Of a stretch of DNA of 64,000 bases, positions 28,172 to 59,196 are shown in pieces; position 1 is the first letter of the stretch; each line of letters opens with the position of its first letter. The notes under the pieces were generated by a model. That model had not been told where the DNA came from, did not search any database, and worked only from the letters and a program-made list of their open reading frames with translations. The position numbers and the translations under genes are program-made. The DNA is from Escherichia coli. Its GTDB lineage: Bacteria; Pseudomonadota; Gammaproteobacteria; Enterobacterales; Enterobacteriaceae. The stretch lies in the NCBI RefSeq assembly GCF_003334315.1, contig NZ_QOWR01000013.1; one strand, written 5' to 3'.

Positions 28172-30928
28172 ATGACCAACTACAGCCTGCGCGCACGCAT
28201 GATGATTCTGATCCTGGCACCGACCGTCCTTATTGGTTTATTGCTGAGTATCTTTTTCGTCGTGCATCGCTATAACGACTTGCAGCGTCAACTGGAAGAT
28301 GCCGGTGCCAGCATTATTGAGCCGCTTGCAGTTTCTACTGAATATGGCATGAGCCTGCAAAATCGCGAATCTATCGGTCAGTTAATAAGCGTACTGCATC
28401 GTCGCCATTCCGATATTGTTCGCGCGATTTCGGTTTATGATGAAAATAACCGACTCTTTGTCACCTCCAATTTTCATCTTGATCCCTCATCAATGCAGCT
28501 CGGCAGCAACGTGCCGTTTCCTCGCCAGCTCACTGTCACTCGTGACGGCGATATTATGATCCTCCGCACGCCGATTATTTCTGAGAGTTACTCCCCCGAC
28601 GAATCGCCCAGTAGCGATGCCAAAAATAGTCAAAATATGTTGGGATATATTGCGCTGGAGCTGGATCTTAAATCGGTTCGCTTGCAGCAATATAAAGAGA
28701 TCTTTATTTCCAGCGTGATGATGCTGTTTTGTATCGGTATTGCGCTTATTTTTGGCTGGCGCTTAATGCGCGATGTAACCGGTCCGATTCGCAACATGGT
28801 GAATACCGTCGACCGCATCCGTCGCGGGCAACTCGACAGCCGGGTGGAAGGATTTATGCTCGGCGAGCTGGATATGCTGAAAAACGGTATCAACTCGATG
28901 GCAATGTCGCTGGCTGCTTATCACGAAGAGATGCAGCACAATATCGACCAGGCGACGTCCGATCTGCGTGAAACGCTGGAGCAGATGGAAATTCAGAACG
29001 TTGAGTTAGATCTGGCGAAAAAGCGCGCCCAGGAAGCGGCGCGTATTAAATCCGAGTTTCTGGCAAATATGTCACACGAGCTGCGTACACCACTGAATGG
29101 TGTTATTGGCTTTACCCGCCTGACGCTGAAAACAGAATTAACACCAACGCAGCGCGATCACCTGAATACGATTGAACGTTCGGCAAATAATTTGCTGGCA
29201 ATTATTAATGATGTTCTCGACTTCTCGAAACTGGAAGCAGGTAAGCTGATTCTGGAAAGTATTCCATTCCCACTACGCAGCACGCTGGATGAAGTCGTTA
29301 CTCTGCTGGCACATTCTTCTCACGATAAAGGGTTAGAACTGACGCTCAATATTAAAAGCGACGTGCCTGATAACGTGATCGGCGACCCGCTGCGATTACA
29401 GCAAATCATCACTAACCTGGTGGGGAATGCAATTAAATTCACCGAGAATGGCAACATTGATATTCTGGTAGAAAAACGTGCGCTGAGTAATACCAAAGTG
29501 CAGATTGAAGTGCAGATTCGGGATACCGGCATTGGTATTCCTGAACGCGATCAATCGCGCTTATTCCAGGCCTTCCGACAGGCTGATGCCAGTATTTCCC
29601 GCCGTCATGGTGGCACCGGGCTGGGGCTGGTGATTACACAAAAACTGGTTAATGAAATGGGCGGCGATATTTCGTTCCATAGCCAGCCGAATCGCGGTTC
29701 AACTTTCTGGTTCCACATTAATCTCGATCTGAACCCGAACATTATTATCGAAGGGCCATCCACCCAGTGCCTCGCAGGTAAGCGCCTGGCCTATGTCGAA
29801 CCAAACTCCGCAGCAGCGCAATGCACGCTGGATATTTTAAGTGAAACGCCGCTGGAAGTGGTTTATAGCCCAACGTTCTCCGCGCTGCCTCCCGCGCATT
29901 ACGACATGATGTTGTTAGGCATCGCGGTGACCTTCCGCGAGCCGCTAACAATGCAACATGAGCGATTAGCGAAAGCGGTATCGATGACCGATTTCCTGAT
30001 GCTGGCACTTCCTTGCCATGCACAAGTCAATGCTGAAAAACTCAAGCAAGATGGTATCGGCGCGTGTCTGCTGAAACCATTAACACCTACACGCCTGTTG
30101 CCTGCCCTGACGGAATTTTGTCATCACAAACAAAACACGCTTTTGCCTGTAACCGATGAAAGTAAGCTGGCAATGACAGTCATGGCGGTTGATGACAACC
30201 CCGCTAACCTGAAACTTATCGGCGCATTGCTGGAAGATATGGTGCAACATGTGGAACTTTGCGATAGCGGGCATCAGGCGGTTGAACGGGCGAAACAGAT
30301 GCCGTTCGATTTGATCTTAATGGATATTCAAATGCCGGACATGGATGGCATTCGGGCCTGCGAACTCATCCACCAACTCCCGCATCAGCAACAAACGCCG
30401 GTTATCGCGGTAACGGCGCATGCAATGGCCGGGCAAAAAGAGAAGCTGCTTGGCGCAGGGATGAGCGATTATCTGGCGAAACCGATTGAAGAAGAGCGAT
30501 TGCATAATTTGTTGTTGCGCTACAAGCCTGGCAGCGGTATTTCCTCTCGCGTCGTGACGCCCGAAGTCAACGAAATTGTGGTGAACCCGAATGCGACCCT
30601 CGACTGGCAACTGGCACTACGCCAGGCAGCAGGAAAAACCGATTTAGCGCGCGATATGCTGCAAATGTTACTCGATTTCCTGCCTGAAGTTCGCAACAAA
30701 GTTGAGGAACAGCTGGTTGGAGAAAACCCGGAAGGCCTGGTTGATTTGATTCATAAACTGCATGGCAGTTGCGGCTATAGCGGTGTGCCACGTATGAAGA
30801 ATCTCTGCCAACTGATCGAACAACAGCTACGTAGCGGTACTAAAGAAGAAGATTTGGAACCGGAGCTGCTGGAACTGTTGGACGAGATGGATAATGTCGC
30901 GCGCGAAGCCAGCAAAATTCTCGGGTAA
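28172..30928 (+). CDS. barA: hybrid sensor histidine kinase BarA
   Basis: 918-aa ORF recognised as BarA (two N-terminal TM segments, HisKA/HATPase, receiver and HPt domains). Confidence 0.97.
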
Positions 30929-30990
30929 TGGATGTCTTGTCGAGTAGCAATCGGCTTTTTATGACGCTGGTTTCAGATTGGTGACAAAGT

Positions 30991-31103
30991 GCCTGTGTTT
31001 ATGCCGGATGCGGCGTTAACGCCTTATCCGGCATACAAAACCAATTAAATTCAATAAATTAAAAAGCATGTAGGCCTGATAAGCGTAGCGCATCAGGCAA
31101 TTT
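30991..31103. repeat. pair of REP elements (BIME) between barA and gudD
   Basis: GCCGGATGCGGCGTTAACGCCTTATCCGGC and GTAGGCCTGATAAGCGTAGCGCATCAGGC units, followed at about 31124-31156 by a CCGGCTC...GAGCCGG hairpin. Confidence 0.65.
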
Positions 31104-31160
31104 TGTGTTTGGCATCAGTCTCAAACCGGCTCCTGACAGAGCCGGTTTTGGTTTTCTGTC

Positions 31161-32501
31161 TTAACGCACCATGCACGGGCGCTTGTTATCGAACGTCCAG
31201 CCAGGAATCAGATACTGCATTCCCATCGCATCGTCACGCGCGCCAAGCCCGTGTTTCTGATACAGCTCATGGGCTTTCATCACTTGATCCATATCGATTT
31301 CTACACCCAGCCCCGGTTTTTCTGGCACCTGTACCAGCCCGCCTTTGATCTCAAACGGTTCTTTGGTCAGGCGCTGATTACCTTCCTGCCAGATCCAGTG
31401 CGTATCAATAGCAGTAATTTTACCCGGTGCAGCGGCGGCAACATGGGTAAACATCGCCAGGGAAATATCGAAGTGGTTGTTAGAGTGTGAACCCCAGGTC
31501 AGGCCAAATTCATGGCACATTTGCGCCACACGTACCGAACCTTGCATTGTCCAGAAATGCGGATCCGCCAGCGGGATATCAACGGATTGCAGGGAGAGCG
31601 TATGGCCCATTTGCCGCCAGTCGGTGGCGATCATATTGGTTGCAGTCGGTAGACCTGTCGCGCGACGGAACTCTGCCATCACTTCACGCCCGGAGAAACC
31701 TTGCTCCGCACCACACGGATCTTCTGCATAAGCCAGCGAACCTTTCAGGTATTTACCGATTTTAATCGCTTCGTTCAGCGACCAGGCACCGTTAGGATCG
31801 AGCGTAATACGCGCCTGCGGGAAGCGTTGCGCCAGTGCCACAATAGACTCGGCCTCTTCTTCCCCGGCCAGTACACCGCCCTTCAGTTTGAAATCGTTGA
31901 AGCCATATTTTTCATATGCCGCTTCCGCCAGGCGCACCACCGCATCCGGCGTCATCGCTTCTTCATGACGCAGGCGATACCAGTCGCATGAGTCATCCGG
32001 CTGGCTTTGATACGGCAGCGGCGTGGCTTTGCGATTACCGACGAAGAACAGATAACCGAGCATTTCGACTTCGCTACGCTGTTGACCATCGCCCAGCAGC
32101 GATGCCACGTTTACCCCCAGATGCTGCCCCAGCAGATCCAGCATTGCCGCTTCTATCCCGGTAACTACATGAATAGTGGTACGTAGGTCAAATGTCTGCA
32201 AACCGCGCCCACCAGCATCACGATCGGCAAAAGTATTACGCACCAGCGTCAGAACGTTTTTGTATTCACCCAGCGTTTTACCTACCACCAGCGGAATCGC
32301 ATCTTCCAGCGTTTTACGGATTTTCTCGCCGCCGGGAATTTCCCCTACGCCAGTGTGACCAGAATTATCTTTGATAATCACAATATTACGCGTAAAGAAC
32401 GGTGCGTGTGCACCACTCAGATTCATCAGCATACTGTCATGACCCGCCACCGGGATAACCTGCATTTCAGTAACAACAGGCGTCGTAAATTGAGAACTCA
32501 T
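31161..32501 (-). CDS. gudD: glucarate dehydratase
   Basis: Track ORF 31161..32525; start placed at [24 protein letters not shown] (446 aa); enolase superfamily. Confidence 0.93.
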
Positions 32502-41344: not shown

Positions 41345-42634
41345 ATGGAAACGACTCAAACCAGCACGATTGCGTCGAAAGACTCTCGTAGTGCCTGGCG
41401 CAAGACAGACACCATGTGGATGTTGGGCCTTTACGGCACGGCAATCGGCGCGGGCGTGCTGTTCCTGCCAATCAACGCCGGTGTTGGCGGTATGATCCCG
41501 CTGATCATCATGGCTATCCTTGCGTTCCCGATGACATTTTTTGCACACCGCGGCCTGACTCGCTTCGTACTGTCTGGTAAAAACCCGGGCGAAGACATCA
41601 CCGAGGTTGTAGAAGAACACTTTGGTATTGGCGCAGGTAAACTGATTACCCTGCTCTATTTCTTCGCTATCTACCCGATCCTGCTGGTTTATAGCGTAGC
41701 AATCACCAATACAGTTGAAAGCTTCATGTCTCACCAGCTGGGTATGACACCACCGCCGCGTGCGATTCTGTCGCTGATCCTGATCGTGGGTATGATGACC
41801 ATCGTTCGCTTCGGTGAGCAGATGATCGTTAAAGCGATGAGTATTCTGGTATTCCCGTTTGTTGGCGTACTGATGCTGCTGGCTCTGTACCTGATCCCGC
41901 AGTGGAACGGCGCAGCACTGGAAACGCTGTCTCTGGACACTGCATCTGCAACCGGGAACGGTCTGTGGATGACCCTGTGGCTGGCAATTCCGGTAATGGT
42001 GTTCTCGTTCAACCACTCTCCGATCATCTCTTCTTTCGCCGTTGCGAAGCGTGAAGAGTACGGCGATATGGCAGAACAGAAATGCTCGAAGATCCTTGCA
42101 TTCGCACACATCATGATGGTGCTGACCGTAATGTTCTTCGTCTTCAGCTGCGTACTGAGCCTGACTCCGGCAGACCTGGCTGCGGCTAAAGAGCAGAACA
42201 TCTCGATTCTGTCTTACCTGGCTAACCACTTTAACGCACCGGTTATCGCGTGGATGGCTCCGATTATCGCGATTATCGCTATCACCAAATCCTTCCTCGG
42301 CCACTACCTGGGCGCACGTGAAGGCTTCAACGGTATGGTGATTAAATCTCTGCGTGGTAAAGGTAAGTCTATCGAAATCAACAAGCTGAACCGTATCACT
42401 GCGCTGTTCATGCTGGTAACGACCTGGATTGTTGCCACCCTGAACCCGAGCATCCTGGGTATGATTGAAACCCTGGGCGGCCCAATCATCGCGATGATCC
42501 TGTTCCTGATGCCGATGTACGCAATTCAGAAAGTACCGGCAATGCGTAAGTACAGCGGTCACATCAGCAACGTATTCGTTGTCGTGATGGGTCTGATTGC
42601 AATCTCCGCAATCTTCTACTCTCTGTTCAGCTAA
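41345..42634 (+). CDS. sdaC: serine:H+ symporter
   Basis: 429-aa ORF recognised as SdaC; preceded by a roughly 550-bp untranslated leader. Confidence 0.96.
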
Positions 42635-58151: not shown

Positions 58152-58958
58152 TTAACCCTGACGCGCCGCTTTCGCCATCATCTTCTTCAGCGCATGAGAA
58201 ACCGCAACAAACCCAAAGGTGGCGGTCACCATCGTTGCCGCGCCAAATCCAGATGCACAATCCATCCGCTTCGGCCCTTCTGCCGTGGCTTTCATCGCAC
58301 ACACCGTACCGTCTGACTGCGGGTACACCAGCGCTTCAGTAGAAAACACGCAATCCACGCCGAGCTTACCTTTACTGTTTTTCACTACGCCAAAATCGCT
58401 TTTCAGGCGCTCGCGCAACTTCGCCGCCAGCGGGTCCTGAATCGTTTTCGCCAGATCGGTAACCTGAATCTGCGTCGGTTCAATCTGCCCACCCGCGCCA
58501 CCGGTTGTGACCAGTGGGATTTTATTGCGCCGACAATAAGCAATCAGCGCCGCTTTGGGCCGTACACTATCAATGGCATCAATCACGTACGAATAACCCA
58601 CGCTCATATACTGCGCTACGTTATCCGGCGTCACGAAATCATCCACCACCGTTACACGGCACTCCGGGTTAATCTGGCGAATACGCTCCGCCATAACTTC
58701 CGCTTTTGCCAGCCCAACGTTATCGCGCAGGGCATGAATTTGCCGATTGGTATTGGTGACGCACACATCATCCATATCGATAAGCGTGATTGCGCCAATC
58801 CCCGTGCGCGCCAGCGCTTCCGCCGCCCAGGAACCGACACCACCGATACCAACCACACAAATATGCGCGTCAGCAAACAGTTGCAACGCTTTTTCACCAT
58901 ACAGACGCGCTGTGCCACCAAAACGCTGACGCCATGCATCACTAATTACCACAGACAT
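58152..58958 (-). CDS. tcdA: tRNA threonylcarbamoyladenosine dehydratase (E1-like)
   Basis: 268-aa ORF recognised as TcdA (CsdL/YgdL); GIGGVGS nucleotide-binding motif. Confidence 0.93.
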   Translation of the reverse strand: MSVVISDAWRQRFGGTARLYGEKALQLFADAHICVVGIGGVGSWAAEALARTGIGAITLIDMDDVCVTNTNRQIHALRDNVGLAKAEVMAERIRQINPECRVTVVDDFVTPDNVAQYMSVGYSYVIDAIDSVRPKAALIAYCRRNKIPLVTTGGAGGQIEPTQIQVTDLAKTIQDPLAAKLRERLKSDFGVVKNSKGKLGVDCVFSTEALVYPQSDGTVCAMKATAEGPKRMDCASGFGAATMVTATFGFVAVSHALKKMMAKAARQG

Positions 58959-58986
58959 AGCACCTCAGAATTAAAAAGGGCGAGGT

Positions 58987-59170
58987 TATCCCTCACCCTA
59001 AACGCATAAATGCCTGATGCGCTACGCTTATCAGGCCTACATAACTCCTGCAATATTTTGGATTTGCATGATTTGTAGGCCGGATAAGGCGTTCACGCCG
59101 CATCCGGCATGAACAACGCGCACTTAGTCAATAATCAGGATGTGAGGTTACCCCTCACCCTGTCATATCC
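58987..59170. repeat. BIME / REP cluster flanked by short GAGGTTA(T/C)CCCTCACCC hairpin repeats
   Basis: Two inverted REP units (GCCTGATGCGCTACGCTTATCAGGCCTAC ... GTAGGCCGGATAAGGCG...GCATCCGGC) bracketed by near-identical 17-21-nt hairpin motifs at about 58987-59007 and 59147-59170. Confidence 0.6.
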
Positions 59171-59196
59171 GTAAAAACGGCATACAGAATATCACA

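Follow-up and report, generated by a model that had tools for sequence, protein, structure and literature searches.

The mobility of REP and BIME sequences has been an open question for about forty years. BIME-1 also goes by the names RIP or RIB element, and to our knowledge no parent insertion sequence is known for the BIME-1 family. Bacterial class C group II introns insert after intrinsic terminators, and neither they nor IS1397, IS621 or the palindrome-embedded REP families of other phyla are known to duplicate the whole target hairpin.

BIME-1 units are about 140 bp in size and are present or absent among E. coli isolates, as quoted in two earlier papers (PMC1187871, citing Bachellier 1997; PMC3333891). 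In-vitro cleavage and rejoining of REP DNA is all that has been shown for the favoured mobiliser, the Y1 transposase TnpA-REP, whose gene, tnpA-REP, sits in the yafL-fhiA region (PMC3333891). Single-strand transposition of the IS200/IS605 type (Y1, TnpA-REP) is not expected to produce a target duplication (PMC3333891, PMC2817692). According to a review, REPs lack the signatures of MITEs (PMC3184786), and in other phyla REP families have been described as 'inserted within' palindromes (PMC3733652).

Here we analyse the gap between tcdA and mltA in a 64-kb stretch of E. coli DNA (hereafter the window), which does not include the yafL-fhiA region. The locus is an ordinary BIME-1 site, and its odd symmetry is explained by a duplicated terminator.

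Results

A direct repeat on either side of the REP pair

In the window, mltA lies on the minus strand at 59197-60294 with its stop codon at the 59197 end, as given by the list of open reading frames and by RefSeq, in which K-12 and other strains have identical DNA annotated, and tcdA lies on the same strand at 58152-58958. The gap between them contains a direct repeat, GAGGTTAYCCCTCACCCT, at 58982-58999 and 59144-59161, on either side of a Y-L-Z1 REP pair. The two copies, GAGGTTATCCCTCACCCT (58982-58999) and GAGGTTACCCCTCACCCT (59144-59161), are equal at 17 of 18 bases, and their starts are 162 nt apart. An initial annotation of this DNA had reported near-identical self-complementary motifs bracketing the REP pair between tcdA and mltA, and in this it was right; the span that it gave, 58987-59170, covers a real repeat but starts 5 nt inside the left copy. 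When the 271-nt gap was shuffled 2000 times, the best 18-mer match was mostly 12-13, reached 16 once and never exceeded 16. A third hairpin copy was not found in the 64-kb window at up to 3 mismatches, and an Rfam search returned nothing on either hairpin.

Both hairpin copies are self-complementary. The tcdA-proximal one (58977-58999, minus strand) is the stem-loop of a terminator that is predicted as working from a terminator scan, RNA folding and orthology. Its minus-strand RNA, AGGGUGAGG-GAUAA-CCUCGCCCU and then UUUUUAAUU, folds into a 9-bp stem (6 GC) with a 5-nt loop (-17.2 kcal/mol, z = -4.6). The scan and the fold together place this stem-loop, followed by TTTTTAATT, 3' of a gene, as in an intrinsic terminator; the T-tract, TTTTAATT on the minus strand, occupies 58969-58976. 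The mltA-proximal copy (59142-59161, minus strand), recognized from the direct repeat and the RNA fold, forms 6+4 bp with a 2-nt AU bulge (-14.1 kcal/mol), the rest of its 3' arm being shifted to 59136-59139 by the 2-nt AT bulge, and it has no T-tract (U tract in RNA). Between the two hairpin copies of the E. coli species representative, all 20 of 20 positions are identical, loop included.

The hairpin motif is conserved in front of tcdA

In the window (58956-58999), the tcdA start codon lies 18 nt past the T-tract of the mltA terminator, and the predicted end of the mltA transcript is 14 nt before this codon; the layout is kept across genera. We fetched 79 Enterobacteriaceae species representatives through TcdA and applied a strict hairpin and T-tract pattern to them. 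At least 26 of the 79, among them Escherichia, Citrobacter, Salmonella, Phytobacter, Kosakonia, Enterobacter and Leclercia, carry a hairpin and T-tract 13-14 nt before the tcdA ATG, the stem being conserved and the loop variable across these species. Outside Escherichia, the hairpin is single and has no BIME (21 species loci), and among the species representatives BIME-1 with a second hairpin copy was found only in five Escherichia loci. Within E. coli, the hairpin 30-mer is present at 1-2 places per genome (5387 genomes), and the motif does not behave as a dispersed repeat, occurring at this locus only. Judging from this conservation and position, the hairpin motif is the native mltA terminator, and so is not a BIME motif or a dispersed repeat. 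The initial annotation had suggested a genome-wide search for the motif and its association with REPs; no such association emerged, with one or two places per E. coli genome and a single copy without BIME in other genera. The motif was not found to be a catalogued part of BIME architecture either, since Rfam is blank on it and paralogous BIME-1 copies do not carry it.

The tcdA Shine-Dalgarno sequence, GAGGTG, was read from the sequence at 58961-58966 on the minus strand, immediately past the T-tract, and the Shine-Dalgarno region TTTTTAATTCTGAGGT is kept across genera. With its start just past the terminator, tcdA must need either read-through of the mltA terminator or a promoter upstream of that terminator; a search of 58800-59400 for a sigma-70-like promoter found none.

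Other palindromes were seen in the same gap. In two Salmonella loci, an extra palindrome, GTCCGATAACG...CGTTATCGGAC, lies upstream of the conserved hairpin, and in some Citrobacter species (3 loci) REP-like palindromes replace the terminator hairpin. The mltA-tcdA gap appears to be a recurrent landing site.

Two further observations concern the window strain itself. Between mltA and amiC it has one initiator tRNA-Met gene (60503-60579), and K-12 MG1655 has three in tandem (metZ, metW, metV). The mltA-tcdA region (58860-59300) is 100% identical to K-12 and O157:H7, and the gudD-barA region (30830-31290) shows 96.5% identity to K-12 and 99.8% to strain CP53; with such unequal identity to K-12 at the two loci, the window strain is a mosaic relative to K-12.

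The insert is a BIME-1 with defined ends

Between the two hairpins lies a 142-nt extragenic unit that is present or absent among isolates. It begins with a truncated outer 'A' arm (59000-59011, minus strand), recognized from an 8-copy alignment and the 152-nt family consensus, whose terminal 12 nt (GTCATCAGTCTC) are missing here. The Y REP, GCCTGATGCG...GGCCTACA (59012-59041, plus strand), identified by inverted repeats and paralog alignment, is followed by the 32-nt L linker (59042-59073), placed by paralog alignment. Next comes the Z1 REP, which starts with TGTAGGCC (59074-59109, plus strand) and was identified by inverted repeats, paralog alignment and a weak Rfam naRNA4 match below threshold. 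The outer 'B' arm, ATCCTGATTATTGACTAAGTGCGCGTTGTTCA on the minus strand (59110-59141), closes the unit and has homologues in the fepA-entD and gudD-barA units as well as in 8 metagenome or K-12 copies. With one Y and one Z1 REP in inverted orientation, a long L linker common to other BIME-1 copies and a family profile score of 154 bits (nhmmer), the unit is a BIME-1. It also has the make-up of a REPIN, in that its inverted REPs are GTAG-tagged (TGTAGGCC at 59074 and GGCCTACA at 59034) and are predicted to form a single hairpin. The IHF consensus WATCAANNNNTTR had no match at up to 1 mismatch in the linker at 59042-59073, and it is matched in the gudD-barA copy at 31049-31061.

In the BIME-1 linker, Rfam family ES036 (CssrF) matched 59033-59075 with 46.5 bits, against a gathering score of 37.6. 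The ES036 (CssrF sRNA) family apparently models a piece of the BIME-1 repeat and not a unique gene.

A second, full-length member of the family, outside the locus and used for comparison only, is found in the gudD-barA gap of the window (30973-31122, plus strand). In genomes without the mltA-tcdA insert, the closest paralog of that insert is the BIME-1 of fepA-entD, with 89% identity over 137 of 142 nt, reaching well past the REPs. The fepA-entD copy was considered as the donor and rejected; it is a member of the family. We sought copies with an outer-arm pattern scan of metagenomes and in a 200-kb MG1655 sample, which together gave nine distinct loci. About 100 of 120 loci from the metagenome scan were chance matches, the 16 real copies representing 9 loci, and the 200-kb MG1655 sample gave only one further full unit. 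The paralogous units, at fepA-entD, gudD-barA, artJ-rlmC, lpdA-yacH, dppA-dppB, glpD-yzgL, cysM-yfeS and dacB-obgE, have the outer arms in common and do not have the mltA hairpin, and the ends of the unit are thereby defined.

The family consensus is 152 nt long and reads CAGATTGTTGACAAAGTGCGC...Z1-L-Y...GCGTTTGTCATCAGTCTC. Its 15-nt ends, CAGATTGTTGACAAA and GAGACTGATGACAAA, are inverted repeats (12/15), the mltA copy being without the last 12 nt at one end, and the whole 152-nt unit is predicted to fold as one hairpin. A scan of 1.38 Mb for the end motif found only BIME-1 copies and no parent element with the same ends, and a comparison of the unit ends with those of IS10, IS903 and IS3 gave no convincing match. 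The current RefSeq record NC_000913.3 has no REP or RIP features annotated. In MG1655, the uup-pqiA gap (11896-11945 of locus L216) and the appA-etk gap (about 41953-42018) contain half units, each with one REP and one outer arm, which may be remnants of internal deletion or excision.

A 162-bp presence/absence polymorphism at mltA-tcdA

The initial annotation had pointed to a comparison of this gap across strains, and a presence/absence polymorphism is indeed found. The arrangement seen in the window occurs in 2752 of 5426 complete E. coli genomes, and the rest (~49%) are exactly 162 bp shorter. In each of the three short alleles examined, there is one perfect hairpin and the boundaries lie inside the repeat, and the three differ in the loop and stem variants that they kept. 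The filled allele equals the empty allele plus the 142-nt insert plus a second hairpin copy of about 20 nt. Judged from the aligned alleles, this comparison shows the two hairpin copies to be a target duplication, 20-23 nt long, of the native hairpin. The length is ambiguous (20 vs 23 nt) because the mltA copy is without one terminal inverted repeat and its left junction is altered, with 2 nt, AT or CT, inside the 3' arm.

The same locus has been expanded in Escherichia sp. MOD1-EC7003, where at least five tandem [hairpin + BIME-1] units stand before tcdA. Each unit is exactly 162 nt long, several sites vary from unit to unit, and the contig breaks off within the array.

E. albertii, three other Escherichia species representatives and E. 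coli all have the filled form with its A arm truncated at the same junction, and a junction common to all Escherichia points to one old event. The three empty alleles have flank haplotypes close to that of the filled allele in the window, and other filled E. coli alleles have very different ones. From this distribution we infer that the insertion is old and that the empty alleles were derived by precise loss through the direct repeats.

The E. albertii locus has features of its own (about 1805-1830 of locus L008). The mltA-proximal hairpin is complete there, reading AGAGTGAG-AAATAA-TCTCGCTCT, and it still pairs although both arms have G-to-A and C-to-T changes; the adjoining BIME arm has lost about 12 nt.

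Filled and empty alleles at other BIME-1 loci

Four further loci were polymorphic, and empty alleles were examined at each of them. At artJ-rlmC, the empty allele is AAAAAGCCGCAGGTGCGGCTTTCTG and the filled one ...GCCGCATGTGCGGCTT - unit - AAGCCGCGGTTGCGGCTTTCTG, giving an 18-nt target duplication that consists of the terminator hairpin AAGCCGC-N4-GCGGCTT. At lpdA-yacH, AAAAAAGCGGCTAACCACGCCGCTTTTTTT in the empty allele corresponds to AAGCGGCTATTCTGGCCGCTT - unit - AAGCGGCTAACAACGCCGCTTTTTT in the filled allele, and the 21-nt duplication is again a terminator hairpin (AAGCGGC-N7-GCCGCTT). The empty allele of dppA-dppB, CCGGGTATGGC, is matched by CCGGGTATA - unit - GTATGGC, a duplication of 4-5 nt, GTAT(G/A), with no hairpin. 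At dacB-obgE, a terminator hairpin is followed by TTTTGC in the empty allele; in the filled allele the unit adjoins the hairpin foot and these 6 nt are replaced with no duplication, though the unit is at the same place on the terminator hairpin.

A duplication at the unit ends is thus present in 4 of the 5 polymorphic loci, three of them with the whole terminator hairpin, and a unit end adjoins the 3' foot of a terminator-type hairpin in 5 of the 9 loci. As a control, left and right flanks were compared in 72 mismatched pairs: a repeat score of 6, the value of lpdA-yacH, was reached in 1 of the 72, and the values of mltA (14) and artJ (9) were never reached. The flanks of fepA-entD, cysM-yfeS and glpD-yzgL had no significant repeat relative to the mismatched pairs. 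The flanks of gudD-barA were considered as a decayed 24-nt duplication (15-16 matches), which was not significant against the same pairs and was left uncounted. With no duplication at dacB-obgE and no significant flank repeat at three loci, hairpin duplication is not universal. Across the aligned alleles, the comparison shows a signature of element-defined ends and duplication of target DNA.

Some details of these alleles deserve mention. The dacB-obgE BIME-1 (30430-30579 of locus L218) is present in 1932 of 5426 genomes; in its filled allele the stem of the dacB terminator is parted from the T-tract and not rebuilt, and the unit stops 3 nt before the obgE stop codon. The two hairpin copies at lpdA-yacH differ in the loop only (TATTCTG vs TAACAAC, 5/7 positions), as do those at artJ-rlmC (ATGT vs GGTT, 3/4 positions), and all 14 stem and flank positions are equal between copies at both loci. 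Either selection maintains the stem of each copy or mutation is faster in the loops. Loop inversion was considered as the cause of the diverged loops and rejected, the loops not being reverse complements of each other. E. coli 2015C-3121 has a third artJ-rlmC allele, hairpin-unit, from which the second hairpin has gone through a 24-nt deletion and whose unit has only ~86% identity to that of the common filled allele. This allele could illustrate a possible origin of one-sided-hairpin sites such as cysM-yfeS.

Discussion

Duplication of the mltA terminator on insertion of a BIME-1, with later loss and amplification driven by the repeats, very probably explains the locus. In the ancestor of the genus Escherichia, a BIME-1 consisting of the Z1 REP, L linker, Y REP and outer arms, represented here by a 142-nt copy with one end truncated, would have landed at the 3' foot of the hairpin, between the stem and the T-tract, and would have left the hairpin in two copies through a target duplication of 20-23 nt. 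Of the two, the tcdA-proximal copy would have kept the T-tract and is predicted still to end transcription. The mltA-proximal copy would have lost it, and mltA transcripts are consequently expected to continue through BIME-1 to the second hairpin. The 18-20-nt direct repeats would then serve as a substrate for recombination or slippage, leading to precise loss of 162 bp and also to tandem amplification, with at least five units in one Escherichia lineage.

The initial annotation saw more order here than in a plain REP cluster, and this reading bears it out, the hairpins being the duplicated target around the Y-L-Z1 unit. The proposed remnant of a mobile element holds to the extent that a small mobile-type element is marked, but the hairpins are not part of it, being the duplicated mltA terminator. 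A composite repeat unit, the other suggestion, exists only as the tandem array of at least five units in MOD1-EC7003 and not elsewhere.

Several other explanations were weighed against the duplicated terminator. That the two hairpins are unrelated GC-rich terminator-like stems, alike by chance or convergence, is hardly conceivable: terminator stems do share composition, and mismatched artJ-type and lpdA-type hairpin pairs scored up to 6 in the control, but the match is 17/18 at the window locus and 20/20, loop included, in the E. coli representative, none of the 2000 shuffles rose above 16/18, and the indel is exactly one repeat period long. Extending the composite repeat unit that the initial annotation suggested, the hairpin could be the integral end of a composite element, hairpin-REP-linker-REP-hairpin, that moves as a whole. 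The symmetrical bracketing of the BIME by two copies, the [hairpin + BIME-1] unit repeated at least five times in MOD1-EC7003 and the regular embedding of REP families in palindromes in other phyla (PMC3733652) would agree with such an element. Against it, the GAGGTTAYCCCTCACCC hairpin motif occurs at mltA-tcdA only, at 1-2 places per genome and with no further copy in the window; in 21 other species loci it stands single and without BIME, its distance to tcdA fixed; nine paralogous units have other flanks; and artJ-rlmC and lpdA-yacH are flanked by different, locus-specific terminators. We consider a composite element very improbable. The duplicated terminator also leaves room for another direction of change, with the single-hairpin allele ancestral within E. 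coli and the 162-bp form gained by insertion or horizontal transfer. A single hairpin is the state of other genera, E. coli recombines freely with close relatives, and in Ecol_448 the stem of the empty hairpin is perfect where the K-12 copies carry changes. Such a gain is nevertheless unlikely, given the filled form with the same junction in E. albertii, three other Escherichia representatives and divergent E. coli haplotypes, the clustering of the three empty alleles with one filled haplotype group, and the variants kept by the empty alleles, which fit separate crossovers within the repeat.

How the hairpin came to be copied is a question of its own. In the chemistry that we prefer, the unit would integrate with a stagger of 4-5 bp spanning the foot of an extruded hairpin or cruciform, by which the whole palindrome would lie between the two nicks and be copied on both sides. 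The duplication lengths, 4-5, 14+4, 17+4 and 19+4, fit a hairpin core plus 2 nt on each side. Selection would favour duplication of the hairpin, by which a terminator otherwise destroyed by the split of stem and T-tract would be rebuilt. More generally, and as a tentative proposal, BIME-1 could be 152-nt MITE-like units with terminal inverted repeats that integrate with a 4-5-bp stagger, preferentially at the 3' feet of intrinsic-terminator hairpins, duplicating an extruded palindrome and regenerating the terminator, with repeats that allow loss or expansion. It is likewise possible, though we hold it doubtful, that the duplication arose without a staggered cut of the transposase type, by template switching during replication or by mending of a break in the hairpin or cruciform, for instance through resolution of a junction that leaves each end with a palindrome copy; a BIME-1, possibly excised by a Y1 enzyme, would have been captured in the process. 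Lengths of 4-5, 18, 21 and 20-23 nt, with none at dacB-obgE, differ from the fixed length typical of a single transposase; one end of the mltA copy is truncated; the 1.38 Mb scanned contained no autonomous element with these ends; and REP/BIME single strands are cleaved in vitro by Y1 transposases (PMC3333891). On the other side, the insert starts at the same family-defined terminus in four loci, and three of these four also end at the other family terminus (CAGATT...GTCTC/T), the window copy being truncated there. Such element-defined ends argue against arbitrary template switches. No microhomology is evident between unit ends and targets, and the lengths obey one rule, palindrome core plus 4.

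Pairs of filled and empty alleles with element-defined ends and target duplications provide a concrete, testable signature of insertion. This signature may be new: in a limited literature search we found no description of a host terminator hairpin duplicated beside a BIME-1, and a prior description is possible. Long flanking repeats favour precise loss, which would account for a BIME-1 so often being merely there in some strains and missing from others. A terminator whose stem and T-tract are parted by an insertion is tolerable when it is rebuilt on the far side. At mltA-tcdA, strains of E. coli probably vary in their mltA 3' ends, and since tcdA starts just past the terminator, its expression could vary between strains too. 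The wider pattern, in which terminator hairpins are targets and target duplications are long, comes from few loci; it is specific, bears on the open question of mobility and hints at a route of insertion. Should the proposal of MITE-like units prove true, tandem expansion would be a possible route to BIME-2-like arrays, and the duplication-free Y1 (RAYT) pathway alone would not explain the spread of BIME-1.

Compared with described systems, the insert resembles BIME-1 in having inverted Y and Z1 REPs, a long L linker, a size of about 140 bp, an extragenic position at the 3' end of a transcription unit and variability between strains; it is unlike in that the mltA copy has a degenerate IHF consensus and one truncated outer arm. 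REPIN/RAYT systems (PMC3116915, PMC3333891, PMC2817692) likewise have inverted REPs tagged with GTAG/CTAC and one long hairpin, and are non-coding, multi-copy and polymorphic. They are expected to insert without target duplication, whereas duplications adjoin the unit ends at the window locus and three others, and in the BIME-1 family the REPs lie inside 15-nt terminal inverted repeats. Correia, ERIC/IRU and similar MITEs (PMC3184786) are likewise short and non-coding, with a long hairpin, flanking direct repeats, empty sites and terminal inverted repeats, the last at 12/15 in the BIME-1 family consensus and missing 12 nt at one end in the mltA copy, and flanking target duplications with empty sites are found for BIME-1 at mltA-tcdA, artJ-rlmC, lpdA-yacH and dppA-dppB. 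Different from MITEs, the BIME-1 duplication has no fixed length (4-5, 18, 21 or 20-23 nt, with dacB-obgE lacking one), and where the target is a hairpin it comprises the whole palindrome, 18-23 nt. With IS1397 and IS621 in REPs (PMC3184786, PMC1525189), the locus has in common an insertion point set by a DNA stem-loop. Finally, the 18-20-nt repeats 162 bp apart, the deletion of one period and the tandem array resemble deletion and amplification between short direct repeats by RecA-independent slippage (PMC5426353), and the repeat-driven loss and amplification at mltA-tcdA is an ordinary consequence of the duplication, with nothing unusual about it.
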